DNA of 48,606 nucleotides from Desulfobacterales bacterium (lineage in GTDB: Bacteria > Desulfobacterota > Desulfobacteria > Desulfobacterales > JAHEIW01). The stretch lies in the NCBI GenBank assembly GCA_050124655.1, contig JASFEV010000003.1, positions 1 through 48,606 on the forward strand, read 5' to 3'. A program made the translations under genes and the position numbers. How positions within the stretch are numbered: position 1 is the stretch's first letter; each line of letters begins with the position of its first letter. The notes beneath the pieces were generated by a model. The model had not been told where the DNA came from, searched no databases, and saw nothing but the letters and a program-made list of their open reading frames with translations. Of the stretch, positions 3,688-9,524 are shown piece by piece.

Positions 3688-4191
3688 ATGAATAAAAAGT
3701 TGTTGATTTTGATTGTTGTCGGCTGTGCTGTCCTATTTTTTGCCGCCGGAATTTATGCCAAAAAAGTTGCTGACGTCATCCCTTTGCAGGACCCGGCCTA
3801 CAAAGAGCACACCAAAGGGATTGTTCAGTTTTCACACGGTAAACACCAGAAAGAATATGCTGAACAGTACCCGGATTTATACAAAAACGGTTGCGGGGAG
3901 TGTCACCACGACAAAGACGGTAAGCCGCTTGCCAGTCTGAAAGAAGGTGACGATGTTCAAAAATGCATCGAGTGCCATACGAAACCCGGTGAAGTCTCCA
4001 AAGAGCTTAAAAAGCAATGGCGCGAAAAAAAGGTTAAACAAGCCGAACAGAAAAAAATCAAGCTCGAATATCACGCTGAAGCCTATCATATGAACTGCCG
4101 CGGTTGTCACAAGGCCTTCAACAAGAAATATAAGCCCAAAAAAGCACCGACAACCTGCACCAAGTGCCATCCGAAAACAGAAGGCGAATAA
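3688..4191 (+). CDS. periplasmic tetraheme cytochrome c3 (class III)
   Basis: Signal peptide; FSHGKH; four CxxCH motifs (CGECH, CIECH, CRGCH, CTKCH); AAGGAGG RBS. Confidence 0.92.
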   Translation: MNKKLLILIVVGCAVLFFAAGIYAKKVADVIPLQDPAYKEHTKGIVQFSHGKHQKEYAEQYPDLYKNGCGECHHDKDGKPLASLKEGDDVQKCIECHTKPGEVSKELKKQWREKKVKQAEQKKIKLEYHAEAYHMNCRGCHKAFNKKYKPKKAPTTCTKCHPKTEGE

Positions 4192-4201
4192 CCTGATCAT
4201 C

Positions 4202-4238
4202 AAAAAAAGCCTGCATCCTCAAGATGCAGGCTTTTTTT
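4202..4238. terminator. bidirectional intrinsic terminator
   Basis: aaaaaaa-gcctgcatc-ctcaa-gatgcaggc-ttttttt between convergent genes. Confidence 0.9.
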
Positions 4239-4289
4239 ATGGAATAATCGAATTATTTCTTACTTCATTATTTTAGAAAAAGTAGAATT

Positions 4290-4365
4290 AAATCTATCTC
4301 AAAAATAGTGGATTACGCTCAAGGGTCCGCCTGCGGCGGATTAGATGCATTTTTGAGATCGATTT
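4290..4365. mobile_element. 76-bp MITE-like element with 17-bp terminal inverted repeats
   Basis: aaatctatctcaaaaat (4290-4306) vs atttttgagatcgattt (4349-4365), 16/17 complementary; internal palindrome gtccgcctgcggcggatt. Confidence 0.5.
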
Positions 4366-5170
4366 TTTTTAGAGCAATAGCTGCCCAGTCATGCTCATCC
4401 GCCGTCCAAACCGCTTCAAGATGCCGACCGGCATAAAGCCCCAATAAATTCTGCATCTCATGCAGCCGAAAACCGGATAGAACCATCCAGCCACCGTTAT
4501 CGGTTAGCTGCAAAATTTGTGGATAAAGGTTTTTCAGCGTCGGGTAGCGCAGGTTGGCCATTACCAATGAATAAGCTGTATCGAGGGTCTCGATTTTACG
4601 CTCCGATATAACCAGTCGATCCTGCAGGTGATTGAGGTCCACATTTGCTCCGGCTTCCGCAATGGCGCAAGGATCAATATCAATGCCCAGTCCCTTTTTT
4701 ATTCCCAGGTAAACGGCGGCCATCGCCAGAATACCCGACCCGGTGCCGATGTCCAGCACAGAGCAATCCGCGCCCAGCCAACTCGGTCGCACTGTCTTTA
4801 AAACATATTCAAGAGCCCGGACCGACAAACGTGTGGTCGCATGCCGTCCGCCGCCAAAGGCTGCCCCGGGCTGAATGCGGATAACCACATCATCGGGCGC
4901 CGGTTTAAATCGATGCCCCGGTGGTTTGACCACGACATGGTCTGAAATGCGCACCGGTTTGTTAAAGGATAGCACCAGAAATGTGCTGCCGAATTCATAG
5001 CTATATTCCAGCTCACCTCTGGCAACCAAATTCTTTAATACTGCTTTAGCGCGAATCTTGTCCAGGCCGTATGTTGCGGTGATGGTCTTTTCAAGATGCT
5101 GGGGCGTTAAGCGGGCGGGTGATGTCGCTATTTTTTTAAGAATCGCTGCTTCAATCCGATGAAGATCCAT
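4319..5170 (-). CDS. PrmA-like SAM-dependent methyltransferase with N-terminal winged-helix (DsrD-like) domain
   Basis: IQPGAAFGGGRHATT (PrmA PG.AFGTG.H.TT), VLDIGTGSGILAMAA (SAM motif I), VMANL, LSG motifs; start set at ATG 5170, 10 nt after the dsrN stop. Confidence 0.85.
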   Translation of the reverse strand: MDLHRIEAAILKKIATSPARLTPQHLEKTITATYGLDKIRAKAVLKNLVARGELEYSYEFGSTFLVLSFNKPVRISDHVVVKPPGHRFKPAPDDVVIRIQPGAAFGGGRHATTRLSVRALEYVLKTVRPSWLGADCSVLDIGTGSGILAMAAVYLGIKKGLGIDIDPCAIAEAGANVDLNHLQDRLVISERKIETLDTAYSLVMANLRYPTLKNLYPQILQLTDNGGWMVLSGFRLHEMQNLLGLYAGRHLEAVWTADEHDWAAIALKKIDLKNASNPPQADP

Positions 5171-5180
5171 TGAACGTGCA

Positions 5181-6692
5181 TCATTGAGCTTTTTTGTGTT
5201 TATAGACGATGGCATTGCGCACCAGCGCCGGCGCCCAATGTGGGGTCCCCAGGGCGTGGATGTGGGTATAGGTGGCCAGTACATTTTTATAGCAGATGCC
5301 GTCTTTGTTCCTGGTAATCCCAACCCCCCGCTGCATGCGGAAAACCAGATCTTTTTCATCGCCGCTCCATTTCAGTACCCGGGAGTAGTGAAACTCGTGA
5401 CCCCGGATCTCAGCACCGATGTCATAATAGGGGTTGTCGCCTTCAACGCTCACTACCGTATAGCCGTGACCCTGGGGCCGGGGATAGAAATCAAACGTCA
5501 ATGGCAACACCCCGACCATGGGATACGAATTTTCTTCGAGCACCAGTTCCTGGCCCAGGTACATTAAGCCACCGCACTCGGCATAAATCGGCAGACCGTC
5601 TTCGGCCATGGCCTTGAGCGCGTCGCGGAAGCTTTTGTTTTCAGCCAGTTGCTGGGCATGGGTTTCCGGAAATCCGCCCCCGATGTAGAGCGCATCCAAT
5701 GCCGGCAATTTGTTTTGCGTCAACGGACTAATGAAAACAATTTCTGCACCGGCCAGTTTGAGGGCATCAATATTTTCCGGATAATAAAACTGAAATGCCG
5801 AATCTTTGATAACTCCAATCCGGGGCCTCTCAGCTTCACCGCCAGCTATTTCAATTCTGTCATCTGCCTTCTGACCTCTGCTTGCCGCGCCGAAGCCTTT
5901 AGGCGAAGGCCGGACCTCTGTTTTCTGTTCTCTGTCCTCTGTCCTCTGTCCTCTGTCTTCTGTATCTAGCGGGGGTAAATCCTGGATGCATTCATAAACA
6001 GCATCCAGGTCAATGTGATCGTTGGCCACCTTTGCAGCAGTATCAATGGATTCGCCGGCCCAATCGTGTTCGGGGGTGGGAACCAGCCCCATGTGGCGTT
6101 CCGGAAAAATCTGGGTTTTCAGCTTGGGAAGGGCACCTAGAACCGGGATCCCGCAATAGTGTTCGATGTTGTCACGCAGGATGCGCTCGTGGCGCGCGCC
6201 CGCCACCCGGTTGAGCACGACCCCTTTGATCATCACATTCGGATCAAATTGAACAAGGCCGGAAATGACCGCCGCCATGGTGCGGGTAATCTTGGTGCAA
6301 TCCACACACATCAAGACCGGGGTTTTGAGCAACTTGGCCAGTTCAGCCGTACTGGTGCTGCCGGCCAGATCAATGCCGTCATAAAGCCCGCGGTTGCCTT
6401 CGATGACGGCAATATCATCTTGGTGGGTATGGGCTAAGAAGGACTGTACAATCTGAGGGGACGCTAAAAGAAACGTGTCCAGATTATAACAGGGCCGATT
6501 GGCCGCCAGGGCCAACCAGCCCGTATCGATATAATCCGGACCCTTTTTAAAGGGAGCGACGGATCTGTTGCGCATTTTCCAGGCAGCAATCAGTCCGATG
6601 GAAAGTATGGTCTTGCCCGAACCACCGCGTAATGCGGCAATCATGATACGCGGAAACCGCATTCTATCCGCTTGTTTTAAGATGGTGTTCAA
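5181..6692 (-). CDS. dsrN: siroheme/cobyrinate a,c-diamide synthase-family amidase DsrN
   Basis: GGSGKT, FKKGPDYID, IEGNRGLYDG, ERHMGL, AECGGLMYLG, GHEFHYS, YTHIH motifs of the CbiA/CobB family; position after dsrD indicates DsrN; start may be ATG 6662. Confidence 0.9.
   Translation of the reverse strand: MNTILKQADRMRFPRIMIAALRGGSGKTILSIGLIAAWKMRNRSVAPFKKGPDYIDTGWLALAANRPCYNLDTFLLASPQIVQSFLAHTHQDDIAVIEGNRGLYDGIDLAGSTSTAELAKLLKTPVLMCVDCTKITRTMAAVISGLVQFDPNVMIKGVVLNRVAGARHERILRDNIEHYCGIPVLGALPKLKTQIFPERHMGLVPTPEHDWAGESIDTAAKVANDHIDLDAVYECIQDLPPLDTEDRGQRTEDREQKTEVRPSPKGFGAASRGQKADDRIEIAGGEAERPRIGVIKDSAFQFYYPENIDALKLAGAEIVFISPLTQNKLPALDALYIGGGFPETHAQQLAENKSFRDALKAMAEDGLPIYAECGGLMYLGQELVLEENSYPMVGVLPLTFDFYPRPQGHGYTVVSVEGDNPYYDIGAEIRGHEFHYSRVLKWSGDEKDLVFRMQRGVGITRNKDGICYKNVLATYTHIHALGTPHWAPALVRNAIVYKHKKAQ
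5856..5965. repeat. 11 x 7-nt (TCTGTCC-like) tandem array with nested 33-nt insert, in frame inside dsrN
   Basis: tctgtca tctgcct tctgacc tctg[5881-5913]acc tctgttt tctgttc tctgtcc x3 tctgtct tctgtat; same heptamer family intergenic at 11214-11323. Confidence 0.85.
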
Positions 6693-6733: not shown

Positions 6734-6979
6734 CTAATCATGTTCTTCGGCACCCGCCTGTTTGCCGGTACCTTTAAGTCCGTATAATGACGTACTACCA
6801 CTGGACCAGTATTCCAGAACCTCTTCCTGCACCAGACGATTGATGACTTTCTTGGCCTCGCGCGGCTTGGCTTCTAAAATCTTGGCCAGGTCATTGAAGT
6901 AAAATTTGGACTTGGTTTTTTGTTTCTTTTGCAGGGCTGCAACGATTTTCTCTTTTGATTCCTCATAATCCAGAGCCAT
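6734..6979 (-). CDS. dsrD: dissimilatory sulfite reductase activator DsrD
   Basis: KSKFYFNDL...LEYWSSGSTSLYGLKG signature, directly after dsrB; AGAGGT RBS. Confidence 0.96.
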   Translation of the reverse strand: MALDYEESKEKIVAALQKKQKTKSKFYFNDLAKILEAKPREAKKVINRLVQEEVLEYWSSGSTSLYGLKGTGKQAGAEEHD

Positions 6980-7052: not shown

Positions 7053-8198
7053 TTAAAACTTGAATTGCGTGGTCTGGCGCCAAGTAAAATACGCCGGATC
7101 GCGGAAATCATCGATCAGGTGGTGGGTAAATTCCAGTTCACATTTCTCAAAGAATCTTTCCCACCCGATGCGCTCGGCCCATTCGCCCAGACGCTCATAT
7201 TTATTGGCGCCTTTCTCGTAGGCCTGCACGATATGTTTGATGCAATCCGTGGTCTTCGGCCAGCGCGGCGGCTCGTTCGGAATAAAGGCCACCACGACCT
7301 TGGAAAACTTCGGGGCGCTGATGCGGTTGGATACCTTGCCGCCCGCCATGATAACGATGCCGTCACCTTCCGTGTCGGCCAGCGGCATGGAGGGGCACAT
7401 GGTGTAGCAATTGCCGCAGAACATGCAGCGGGGTTCATTGACTGCCACACTGTTGACCTTTTCGCCTTTAAACTCGACCTTGGCCGGTTTGATGGCAGCC
7501 GTCGGGCAAGCAGCAATGGCCAGCGGGATCTCGCACATCTTATCCAGATATTCATGATCCAGCATCGGCGGTTTGCGGTGGTAGCCCAGGATGGCGATAT
7601 CCGAACAATGCACCGCACCGCACATGTTCAGACAGCAGGCCAGGGATACACGCAGCTTGGCCGGTAATTTGTGCTCTTTAAAATAATCAAAGAGCACGTC
7701 CATGGTGGCCTTGACCGGCCCGGAGGCATCGGTGGCCGGTGTGTGGCAGTGAATCCAGCCCTGGGTGTGCACGATGTTGGTGATGGAGGTGCCGGTTCCG
7801 CCCACCGGAAACTTGAAGCTGCCGCCGGCAAACTTGCGGCTTTCAAGATCCTTGATCAGCGGATCGACCTTGCTTTCCTCGTCCACCATAAATTCGATGT
7901 TGTTGCGCGTAGTAAAACGCAGGTGGCCGCCGCAATGTTTTTCGGCGATATCGCAGATCTCACGGATGTGGGAGGTGCTCATCAACCGGGCACCCCCGCA
8001 GCGGACCGTAAAAACTTTGTCGCCGGATTCGGCCACATGCACCAAGACGCCGGGTTTGATGACATCATGATACAGCCATTTGCCCTTGTTTTTGGCAATC
8101 ACCGGCGGATAAAATTCGTCGTATTTTCGCGGACCGATGTCTGAAATTCTGTTTTCCATCGGTTTGTCAGGATTGTAACCTGATGATACAAATGCCAT
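7053..8198 (-). CDS. dsrB: dissimilatory sulfite reductase beta subunit
   Basis: [64 protein letters not shown] ferredoxin domain, WRQTTQFKF. Confidence 0.99.
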
Positions 8199-8210: not shown

Positions 8211-9524
8211 CTATCTCTGATGATATTTTCTAAATTCGTCGATGTCTCGTTCAAATCCGCCCGGCACCTCATCTTCTTTCCAGAAGATGTACGGGTTGGA
8301 TCTGGGCTCCTGAACCATGCGCGGATCAGGCTGCAGGCCGGTGACTTCCAGCAGTTTCTGAAAGCCCTGGCGTTTCATCAGCTCGCCCAGCCGCTCGCGG
8401 TTCTTGCCTTCTTCCATCCACCAATCCCAGATGGCCTCAATGACTTCTTTAATTTCATCATAGGGCTCTTCGGCTTTGACGAAGGGCACCAGCATCGAGC
8501 TCATCTGGGCACCATCGAGAATCGGGGCCTTGGCGCCGACCAGAATCGACAGACCGGTGTCCTCTCCGATGCGCAGTGCTCTGGGCATAACATTGATGCA
8601 GTGCATGCAGCGGTTGCACTCCTTGTTTTCGATCATCAGCTTGTTGCCTTCCATCCACATGCACTCCGTGGGGCAAAGGTCGCAGACTTCTTTCTGGATG
8701 TCGAATGGGCCCCAGTCATGGCCGTCGTGATCATTGGCATTGGGCGCAATTTCGCCGCCGATGTATGCCTGAACTGCTTCCTGGTCGATGCGGATGTCGT
8801 CTCGCCAGGTGCCGATAAAGGACATGTCCGCCCGGGCAATCGACGCCACGCAGCAGTTGGGGCAGCCGTCAAATTTGAATTTAAACTTGTACGGAAATGC
8901 CGGCCGGTGCAGCTCATCCTGGTATTCCTGGGTAAGGTGATAGCAAAGTTCCTGGGTATCATAGCAGGCGTATTCGCAGCGTGCCTGGCCGATGCAGTCG
9001 GCCGGTGTCCGCAGGTTGGAGCCCGAGCCGCCCAGGTCCTGATTCAGGTTGTGGGTCATTTCATAAAAGATTTCTTCCAGCTGGGGCGTGGTGGTGCCCA
9101 GAAAAATAATGTCACCGGTGGAGCCGTGCATGTTGGTGATTCCGCTGCCGCGGAAGTCCCACAGATCACAGAGCTGTCTTAAGTATTCTGCGGTATAAAA
9201 TTTCCCGCCCGGCTGGGCCACCCGCATGGTATGAAAGTGCGCCACACCCGAAAACTCTTCGGGCTGGTCGCAGTAGCGGCCGATGACGCCGCCGCCATAG
9301 CCGAATACACCGACGATGCCGCCGTGCTTCCAGTGGGTTCGGCCGTGTTTGAACGAAAGCTCCAGTACACCCAGAAGGTCTTCAACAACATCCTTCGGAA
9401 TCTGAAATTCAACTTTCTCCTTGTTTTTCGCCCTGACTTCGGCCTGTTGTTTCAAATCCGAAACAAAACTCGGCCACGGCCCGCTTTCAAGCTGGTCCAA
9501 CAACGGGGTTTTATGTTTTGCCAT
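8211..9524 (-). CDS. dsrA: dissimilatory sulfite reductase alpha subunit
   Basis: TPLLDQLESGPWPSFV, THWKHGGIVGVFGYGGGVIGRY, CIGQARCEYAC and GCPNCC siroheme/[4Fe-4S] ligands; GGAGGT RBS. Confidence 0.99.
   Translation of the reverse strand: MAKHKTPLLDQLESGPWPSFVSDLKQQAEVRAKNKEKVEFQIPKDVVEDLLGVLELSFKHGRTHWKHGGIVGVFGYGGGVIGRYCDQPEEFSGVAHFHTMRVAQPGGKFYTAEYLRQLCDLWDFRGSGITNMHGSTGDIIFLGTTTPQLEEIFYEMTHNLNQDLGGSGSNLRTPADCIGQARCEYACYDTQELCYHLTQEYQDELHRPAFPYKFKFKFDGCPNCCVASIARADMSFIGTWRDDIRIDQEAVQAYIGGEIAPNANDHDGHDWGPFDIQKEVCDLCPTECMWMEGNKLMIENKECNRCMHCINVMPRALRIGEDTGLSILVGAKAPILDGAQMSSMLVPFVKAEEPYDEIKEVIEAIWDWWMEEGKNRERLGELMKRQGFQKLLEVTGLQPDPRMVQEPRSNPYIFWKEDEVPGGFERDIDEFRKYHQR

Follow-up and report, generated by a model that had tools for sequence, protein, structure and literature searches.

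A PrmA-type methyltransferase with a putative DsrD-family winged helix, encoded behind dsrN in a Desulfobacterales bacterium

Introduction

Sulfate respiration has DsrAB as its key enzyme. DsrD, a small activator of DsrAB, was given a function only in 2022, and whether a genome has dsrD or lacks it is taken as a sign of the direction in which its sulfur metabolism runs. Here we describe a gene found in a stretch of 48,606 nts from a Desulfobacterales bacterium (GenBank assembly GCA_050124655.1, contig JASFEV010000003.1, positions 1 to 48,606; "the window" below), where it is the last of a same-strand series dsrA-dsrB-dsrD-dsrN and encodes a 283-aa protein. As judged from its sequence, the architecture of this protein is that of a DsrD-family winged helix (residues 1-70, the N-domain) followed by a PrmA-type methyltransferase core without the module that recognizes ribosomal protein L11.

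The closest described systems are PrmA, DsrD and a natural fusion of DsrD. PrmA is a two-domain enzyme, its N-terminal domain recognizing L11 and its C-terminal domain adding methyl groups to lysines and to the N-terminal amine, according to the excerpted text of PMC10293735. The excerpted text of PMC8794893 presents DsrD as an allosteric activator acting on DsrAB; it adds that DsrD binds DNA non-specifically in vitro, that its role is concluded to be DsrAB activation and not regulation, and that Bilophila wadsworthia has a natural DsrB-DsrD fusion.

The 283-aa protein shares with PrmA (PF06325; solved structures 2nxe and 3cjt from T. thermophilus, 3grz from L. delbrueckii) the catalytic fold, the motif blocks and the two-module logic of an N-terminal targeting domain and a C-terminal class I S-adenosylmethionine (SAM) methyltransferase that the same part of PMC10293735 describes. 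It differs in having a 70-aa winged helix in place of the L11-recognition domain and linker, in scoring below the NCBIfam equivalog cut-offs, and in coexisting with a canonical PrmA. With DsrD (PF08679; solved structures 1ucr and 1wq2 from D. vulgaris), the N-domain shares the winged-helix fold, the length and the order of elements, as well as a tyrosine and a glycine of the wing; DsrD is also the closest of the families compared by profile, and both are encoded in or near dsr loci. However, the N-domain is part of a 283-aa enzyme and not a stand-alone protein of about 80 aa, it is out of reach of the Pfam model, and it does not keep the lysine richness or the KSKFYF motif of DsrD. The Bilophila fusion, as given in PMC8794893, likewise joins a DsrD module to a larger sulfite-reduction protein, but there DsrD is joined to a subunit of its own target, whereas here the DsrD-like module is joined to a methyltransferase. 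By sequence, the N-domain has its nearest relatives in divergent proteins encoded in the dsrD position (the dsrD slot) of other Desulfobacterota families; these stand alone at 75-84 aa between dsrB and dsrN, with no enzyme fused to them.

Results

A PrmA-type catalytic core without the L11-recognition domain

Residues 71-269 match the Pfam PrmA model with 151.9 bits (cut-off 22) and cover model positions 106-295 of 296, while matches to the generic Pfam families Methyltransf_31, Methyltransf_25 and Methyltransf_23 are weak. Model positions 1-105, which hold the L11-recognition domain and the linker, are without counterpart in the protein. The AlphaFold2 (AF2) model, built with 37 homologues, has a predicted local distance difference test score (pLDDT) of 89.5 and a predicted template modelling score of 0.83. 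When the whole model is searched with Foldseek, the best solved relatives are PrmA structures, with T. thermophilus 2nxe_B at E 6.5e-17; the core superposes on 3grz_B, a catalytic-domain structure of an L11 methylase, with a template modelling (TM) score of 0.89 and a root-mean-square deviation (rmsd) of 2.3. The blocks GAAFGGGRHATT, DIGTGSGILA, IDID, ANL and SG show little or no variation among 34-37 homologues, and they align with the corresponding blocks of 3grz. DIGTGSGILA and IDID supply the glycine-rich D-x-G-T-G-S-G motif and the following acidic residue of class I SAM methyltransferases.

Public sources label the homologues "50S ribosomal protein L11 methyltransferase". This name has the Pfam PrmA match on its side, but the protein scores 124.4 bits with the NCBIfam prmA equivalog TIGR00406, below the cut-off of 183.15, and 71-105 bits with four NF0017xx prmA models, all below their cut-offs of 188-327. 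A canonical prmA is present elsewhere in the genome that contains the window (G000:C121, 307 aa, 263 bits, PrmA model positions 10-294). Given these scores and the separate canonical PrmA, the 283-aa protein is therefore not the housekeeping L11 enzyme, and we reject this identity, the L11-recognition part being absent as well. A first-pass annotation of the window, made from the sequence, had described a PrmA-like SAM domain lacking the normal L11-recognition domain and had suggested looking for a separate canonical prmA; the coverage of the Pfam model agrees with the description, and the search found the gene.

The genome also encodes a third PrmA-like paralogue (L003:1453-2316 on the minus strand, G000:C122; 287 aa, 120.9 bits, model positions 114-283), which has a different N-terminal region of about 110 aa and adjoins a CBS-domain-like gene.

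The N-terminal domain in profile comparisons

In the AF2 model the N-domain consists of three helices and a beta hairpin (H3-16, H23-34, H38-50, E54-59, E62-67), with pLDDT of 88-89 and alike whether modelled in the full protein or alone. This is a winged helix of some 65-70 residues with the H-H-H plus hairpin order of DsrD. Many families of winged helix-turn-helix (wHTH) proteins have the fold in common, and it therefore does not discriminate DsrD.

To compare families, we aligned profiles with hhalign, using as query an alignment of 19 N-domains and, as controls, alignments built from the genomes of relatives. The N-domain scores 56.0 with canonical DsrD (97.1% probability, 61 columns), 61.6 with the divergent dsrD-slot type, and 73.0 with the two together (98.3%, 66 columns). 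The wHTH controls, which are three families only, score 36.5 for GntR (44 columns), 30.8 for IclR and 21.3 for MarR; the GMT-wHTH family is present in just 1 of 16 relatives and hence is not among them. Canonical DsrD against the divergent type gives 48.4. The hhalign register, ...EKTITATYGLDKIRAKAVLKNLVARGELEYSYEFGST against ...AK-I---LEAKPREAKKVINRLVQEEVLEYWSS-GST, is the one that the first-pass annotation had drawn by eye, and the likeness it proposed holds above chance at the profile level. Residues invariant in both the N-domain and DsrD are the tyrosine and glycine of the wing (L-E-Y...G-S-T).

Searches of the 38,217 six-frame open reading frames (ORFs) of the own genome are nearly reciprocal. 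With a hidden Markov model (HMM) of the N-domain, the genome's own DsrD is second-best (E 0.045); with an HMM of canonical and divergent DsrD, the 283-aa methyltransferase is second-best (E 3.5e-4), and with a canonical-only DsrD HMM it is third (E 0.62). The same genome has at least 7 GntR, at least 4 MarR_2 and at least 1 IclR domains. A stand-alone winged-helix ORF of about 56 aa (G000:C77:15228-15407, minus strand) is the next-best match, not significant, of the N-domain and DsrD HMMs (E 0.09-1.8).

In a library of 1.84 billion representative proteins, the N-domain profile finds 350 matches at E<=0.001. Nearly all of the best 150 are members or fragments of the methyltransferase family, and among these 150 are two complete proteins of 70-71 aa, at E 9.4e-13 and 8.4e-12, one of which is 51% identical to a dsrD-slot protein. 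A further protein, P0180 (161 aa), consists of two small winged helices in tandem, of which one is weakly DsrD-like and the other GntR-like. In a maximum-likelihood (ML) tree, canonical and divergent DsrD form one clade (96/81). From these comparisons the N-domain is probably a member of the DsrD family, broadly understood, and its nearest type by sequence is that of the divergent dsrD-slot proteins.

Divergent proteins in the dsrD slot

Scanning 401 genomes of the phylum with the N-domain profile (E<=0.001) gives matches in 52, of which 11 are the own genome and orthologues of the same order. The 41 others comprise 1 orthologue (G307), 16 canonical DsrD (14 called through coincident places and 2 through loci with Pfam DsrD of 65-75 bits), 6 genomes with a 75-84-aa dsrD-slot protein, 12 with unchecked small frames that agree with these in size and family, and 6 other or unknown cases. 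In the six loci examined, the divergent protein lies between dsrB and dsrN and reaches at most 19 bits with Pfam DsrD (cut-off 24.2), or nothing. The N-domain profile gives it 28-40 bits in per-genome scans. These proteins end in ...VYTYFGGSF(I/V)E, and in the wing they carry the motif Y-x-Y-x-x-G-(S/G)-(T/S)-F, in agreement with the N-domain. For one family, coded f65, the N-domain profile finds the divergent protein in 12/12 genomes and Pfam DsrD in 1/12.

Marker-gene surveys that call dsrD by the Pfam model may thus miss the divergent form. A dsrD reported as missing in cable bacteria was found later (PMC13047784, 2026, from its excerpted text); this case fits a divergent DsrD that escapes models, our coded families not being identified with those organisms.

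Distribution and neighbourhood of the methyltransferase gene

A protein search with the 283-aa methyltransferase yields 1,266 homologues (E<=0.001); the top 120 are 260-317 aa long and come from Desulfobacterales metagenome-assembled genomes (MAGs). With the N-domain profile, the gene turns up in 235 of the 301 genomes sampled from the class; the 235 are all of the same order and usually have one copy, and DsrD is found in 283 of the 301. In the sample of the phylum the gene occurs in 12/401 genomes, and DsrD in all 12 (184/401 overall). In the samples searched, the paralogue is restricted to the order Desulfobacterales of the class Desulfobacteria.

Of 19 related loci from named MAGs, 13 have the gene directly behind dsrN. 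We tallied by hand about 78 genomes in which the places of both this gene and DsrD are known: the two are within 7 kb in 8 genomes and on the same contig at least 20 kb apart in 9; in the rest they are on different contigs. The 8 close cases show three arrangements: behind dsrN (G010, G124, G197), convergent with dsrN (G013, G113), and about 2-3 kb upstream of dsrA (G001, G012, G173). We also inspected, with wider flanks, 24 further loci chosen from genomes without known dsr linkage of the gene. Directly upstream of it, 15 of them have one or both of two conserved genes, c4 and c6, usually in the order rnpA-yidD-yidC-jag-mnmE-c4-c6-methyltransferase gene. One more locus (L022) has c6 four genes away, and another (L171) resembles the window, with dsrN directly upstream and a c3 cytochrome gene downstream. 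The own genome has c4 and c6 behind mnmE, and the methyltransferase gene is not there.

The protein c6 is conserved, Lys/Arg-rich and 115-136 aa long, and within Desulfobacterales it is encoded between c4 and the methyltransferase gene. It has no match in Pfam or NCBIfam, and among the best 120 of its 3,533 homologues every name shown is "hypothetical". It occurs in 70/401 genomes of the phylum, and in all 12 loci examined outside Desulfobacterales it is at most 3 kb from dsrA or dsrD, three of them with c4 before it (c4-c6-dsrABDN). The family coded f2 has the order c6-methyltransferase gene-(about 2 kb)-dsrABD. From this distribution c6 looks like an unrecognized dsr-associated protein family, for which DsrT is a conceivable identity. 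The c4 protein (216-247 aa, CxxCxxCC, PF03692) precedes c6 both behind mnmE and upstream of dsrABDN.

Beside the dsr genes of the 12 loci outside the order, tblastn with the 283-aa methyltransferase and canonical PrmA finds no methyltransferase and no unfused precursor. In a metagenomic protein of 467 aa (P0153), one frame runs from the GATase_3 domain of DsrN through a DsrD-like domain into the beginning of the PrmA core; this is a fusion or else the result of merging gene calls.

Other arrangements seen in these loci concern the dsr genes and the orthologues themselves. In three loci of other families dsrD precedes dsrA (dsrD-dsrA-dsrB-dsrN; L183:8922-13148, L186:8937-13261, and L187:2697-6897 on the minus strand), and in L182 dsrD is convergent with dsrA-dsrB-dsrN and has c6 directly upstream. 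In L015, whose orthologue is one of the 13 behind dsrN, codon 12 is an in-frame stop (L015:5066-5113), which may be a sequencing error or mark a pseudogene.

The locus in the window

In Table 1 we collect the features of the window together with the places of c4, c6 and the divergent dsrD-slot proteins.

Table 1. Coordinates of the methyltransferase gene, its domains and neighbours in the window, and of related genes in other loci (L) and in the own genome (G000).
Feature	Position	Strand	Evidence
Gene for the 283-aa DsrD-like/PrmA-like methyltransferase	5170..4319, stop included	(-)	ORF, translation
N-domain, residues 1-70, winged helix probably of the DsrD family	4961..5170	(-)	AF2; hhalign; profile searches
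PrmA-type class I SAM methyltransferase core, residues 71-269	4364..4960	(-)	Pfam PrmA; Foldseek; motif blocks
dsrA	9524..8211	(-)	ORF; DsrA 86-98% identical in syntenic loci
dsrB	8198..7053	(-)	ORF; DsrB 86-99% identical in syntenic loci
dsrD, stand-alone canonical paralogue of the N-domain	6979..6734	(-)	Pfam DsrD 102.9 bits
dsrN, siroheme amidase type, CobB/CbiA-like	6692..5181	(-)	Pfam CbiA + GATase_3; NCBIfam CobB-type
Two-way terminator-like 9-bp GC-rich hairpin, A-run before, T-run after	4209..4231	(.)	Sequence, folding
Class III (c3-type) cytochrome gene, convergent	3688..4191	(+)	Pfam Cytochrom_CIII
c6	L020:7505-7867 (+); L177:7453-7776; L181:10209-10550 (-); L182:4550-4873; own genome G000:C2:45917-46261
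c4	L020:6765-7505 (+); L180:3285-3944; L181:10578-11222 (-)
Divergent dsrD-slot winged-helix protein	L059:3971-4210 (-); L061:3971-4210 (-); L062:3977-4201 (+); L066:3971-4213 (-); L067:3977-4228 (+)

The ATG of the methyltransferase gene at 5170 follows the dsrN stop (5183-5181) after a gap of 10 nts. A longer frame from 5359 would overlap dsrN; we set the start at 5170 because the N-terminus conserved among 34-37 aligned homologues begins there, including in homologues that are not behind dsrN. The position, strand and order of genes given in the first-pass annotation are correct. Its description of the gene as the fifth of a dsrABDN operon holds in the own genus and in several other families, but many Desulfobacterales have the gene elsewhere. 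The gene is linked to dsr genes or c6 in many loci, and all 12 carriers in the phylum sample have DsrD; adjacency to dsrN is not universal.

Contigs from RNA libraries (four wetland metatranscriptome runs) span most of the gene, and the junction of dsrN and the methyltransferase gene is bridged in 2 of the 4 runs (X1 4851-5382; X3 5128-5451), such bridging contigs being no proof of a single transcript. Downstream, the hairpin separates the gene from the c3-type cytochrome gene; its folding energies are -25.8 kcal/mol on one strand and -24.9 kcal/mol on the other (z -6.0 and -7.5), and a consensus terminator scan does not list it. Positions 4205-4325 have no contig cover in 4/4 runs, which is compatible with termination at the hairpin, though a gap between contigs is no evidence of it. 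The cytochrome gene is at the same place in the syntenic loci and in L171, and is thus a conserved neighbour of the dsrN-methyltransferase arrangement.

Within dsrN, positions 5900-5965 encode a charged, repeat-like insert (...EDRGQRTEDREQKTEV...). The RNA contigs break at this insert or diverge from the window; they have loose ends at 5917-5963, and in one run the depth spikes. This suggests that the stretch varies in length between strains.

A proposed function and its alternatives

The explanation we consider best, and in which our confidence is evenly balanced, is that the gene encodes a PrmA-paralogous protein methyltransferase retargeted by a DsrD-family domain to a protein of the Dsr system. 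The gene would be a PrmA paralogue that keeps the SAM-dependent core, whose targets in PrmA are lysine side chains and the N-terminal amine, and in which a DsrD-family winged helix of 70 residues would have been substituted for the L11-recognition domain and linker. The DsrD-like domain would dock the enzyme on a Dsr-system partner (DsrAB at the DsrD site, DsrD, DsrC or c6), and the catalytic core would methylate a lysine or the N-terminus of the docked partner. We propose the docking because the N-terminal domain of PrmA selects its substrate and DsrD binds and activates DsrAB; a DsrD-type targeting module together with adjacency to dsr genes and c6 would make retargeting to the Dsr system the simplest reading. 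The substrate, the docking and an effect on sulfite reduction are all what we infer here. A prediction of the complex of DsrA, DsrB and the N-domain from alignments, run without controls, gave 0.23 and 0.01, the mark being 0.32, and weighs neither for nor against the docking.

A number of results count against this explanation. Single-sequence methods do not see DsrD in the N-domain: BLASTP with the 283-aa protein aligns nothing there, residues 1-70 have no Pfam match, Pfam DsrD (gathering cut-off 24.2 bits) does not match the protein at E<=1, and a six-frame scan of the genome with that model at E<=10 finds dsrD itself and not the methyltransferase. When Pfam is run on the 19 N-domains of the family, DsrD is touched in 3/19 (best E 0.04) and MarR_2 in 6/19. 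Against the sequences of solved structures, the best match of the N-domain profile is the GntR-type repressor AraR (E 5.2e-4), and D. vulgaris DsrD reaches only E 0.39. The hhalign score of 56, taken alone, is at the level of two related wHTH families, because MarR against IclR gives 57.4. The structure does not single out DsrD either. Foldseek with the N-domain model has no match at E<=0.001, its matches being generic winged helices at E>=3.9e-3 (RPC34, PerR/Fur, F-93, MarR, Z-alpha), and DsrD is absent among the 50 rows shown; a feature search of residues 1-70 in the ESM Atlas gives no usable match. A wide structural search places DsrD 1ucr_A at rank 17 (Z 8.7, rmsd 2.8, 65 aligned), below BlcR (Z 10.9) and SAMD1 (Z 10.5), with 56 chains at Z>=8. 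ML trees of 58-65 short wHTH sequences leave the N-domains unplaced between DsrD and GntR, and approximately unbiased tests, from which the long-branch row L025 was dropped, reject neither the grouping with DsrD (p 0.30) nor that with GntR (p 0.078). The lysine fraction is 0.07 in the N-domain and 0.16 in DsrD, most of the conserved lysines of DsrD being lost. As for the genomes, dsrN is adjacent in only 6 of the 30 best loci of the class, the own one included; in 7 of the 24 further loci the neighbours are unrelated (YceG/NagZ-type, YcaO, Na/H exchanger, TOBE) or cannot be assigned; and 6 genomes of 87-96% completeness have the methyltransferase gene and no Pfam DsrD match. The carriers are all sulfate reducers of a single clade; co-occurrence with DsrD may be inheritance and linkage a relic of the birthplace of the gene. 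The likeness to DsrD noticed in the first-pass annotation thus stands for profiles and is invisible to BLASTP and to the Pfam DsrD model. The annotation's own caveat, that the similarity may be that of wHTH proteins in general, applies to the fold, but by profile DsrD is the closest of the wHTH families compared.

The main rival of the retargeting reading generalizes that caveat: the N-domain would be a generic wHTH, the substrate a protein that is not part of the Dsr system (such as one associated with nucleic acids or related to translation), and the dsr and c6 neighbourhood inherited synteny. The many wHTH proteins above or level with DsrD in the fold search, the AraR match, the open placement between DsrD and GntR and the unrelated neighbours all favour it, as does the commonest location of the gene, at the end of the housekeeping cluster rnpA-yidD-yidC-jag-mnmE. 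It would have to explain, however, why DsrD heads the four wHTH families compared by 20-50 hhalign units over almost the full length, why the search in the own genome is nearly reciprocal among so many GntR, MarR_2 and IclR domains, and why the matches at E of about 1e-12 in the whole library are of the stand-alone dsrD-slot type; moreover, the c4 and c6 genes that intervene after mnmE are linked to dsr genes in other orders, and three distinct arrangements keep the methyltransferase gene near dsr genes. On balance we regard it as unlikely. N-terminal winged helices of O-methyltransferases serve dimerization, and the N-domain could similarly be a dimerization or scaffolding module, as in small-molecule O/N-methyltransferases, with the choice of substrate left to the catalytic domain. 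Indeed, the whole-model Foldseek list includes the O-methyltransferases MfnG, RdmB and BchU with their N-terminal domains (E 1e-9 to 2e-11), that of the N-domain includes plant PaOMT9 (rank 7) and human ASMT (rank 24), and the high AF2 confidence across the domain junction suggests a rigid unit. This is improbable for a core that is PrmA-type (E 6.5e-17 against 2e-11 at best for O-methyltransferases, besides the TM score with the L11 methylase), that keeps the PrmA-family motif blocks, and whose N-domain has its sequence relatives among DsrD-type proteins and not among methyltransferase dimerization domains.

A role with nucleic acids, in which the wHTH would bind DNA or RNA and the protein would be a SAM-dependent regulator of dsr genes or methylate a target bound to nucleic acid, could draw on the non-specific DNA binding of DsrD in vitro (PMC8794893, excerpted text) and on the nearest structural neighbours of the N-domain, which are DNA-binding repressors and binders of Z-DNA and B-DNA. 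Yet that same text concludes that DsrD activates DsrAB and does not regulate, the net charge of the N-domain is near neutral (median +1), and the PrmA family acts on proteins (PMC10293735, likewise in excerpt), so that we find this role highly improbable. The ordinary L11 methyltransferase of the public annotation, contradicted by the missing recognition domain, by all five NCBIfam cut-offs and by the canonical PrmA of the genome, has hardly any probability left.

Discussion

Full-text literature searches, whose reach does not extend to a 2024 Protein Science study of the DsrD-DsrAB interaction, found no description of a DsrD-methyltransferase fusion, and "methyltransferase" and "PrmA" have 0 occurrences in the main text of two broad comparative papers on dsr genes (PMC10591310, PMC10504309). 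What appears new, going by sequence comparison, is a PrmA-family methyltransferase that carries a putative targeting domain of the DsrD family. The public name of the family, "L11 methyltransferase", is misleading. The DsrD-family proteins are also broader than Pfam's model of them, which matters because the presence or absence of dsrD serves to infer the direction of sulfur metabolism.

Retargeting by the DsrD-family domain may have a wider consequence, which we put forward tentatively, as possible and hardly as probable: Desulfobacterales would have a methyltransferase dedicated to the Dsr system and with it a SAM-dependent, post-translational control of sulfite reduction, and the enzyme together with c4 and c6 would form an unrecognized Dsr accessory module. 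With a conserved enzyme that has a DsrD-type module there would be a first indication of Dsr proteins being under regulation by methylation, and the architecture of the enzyme suggests that sulfate respiration may include a methylation step that has so far gone undescribed.

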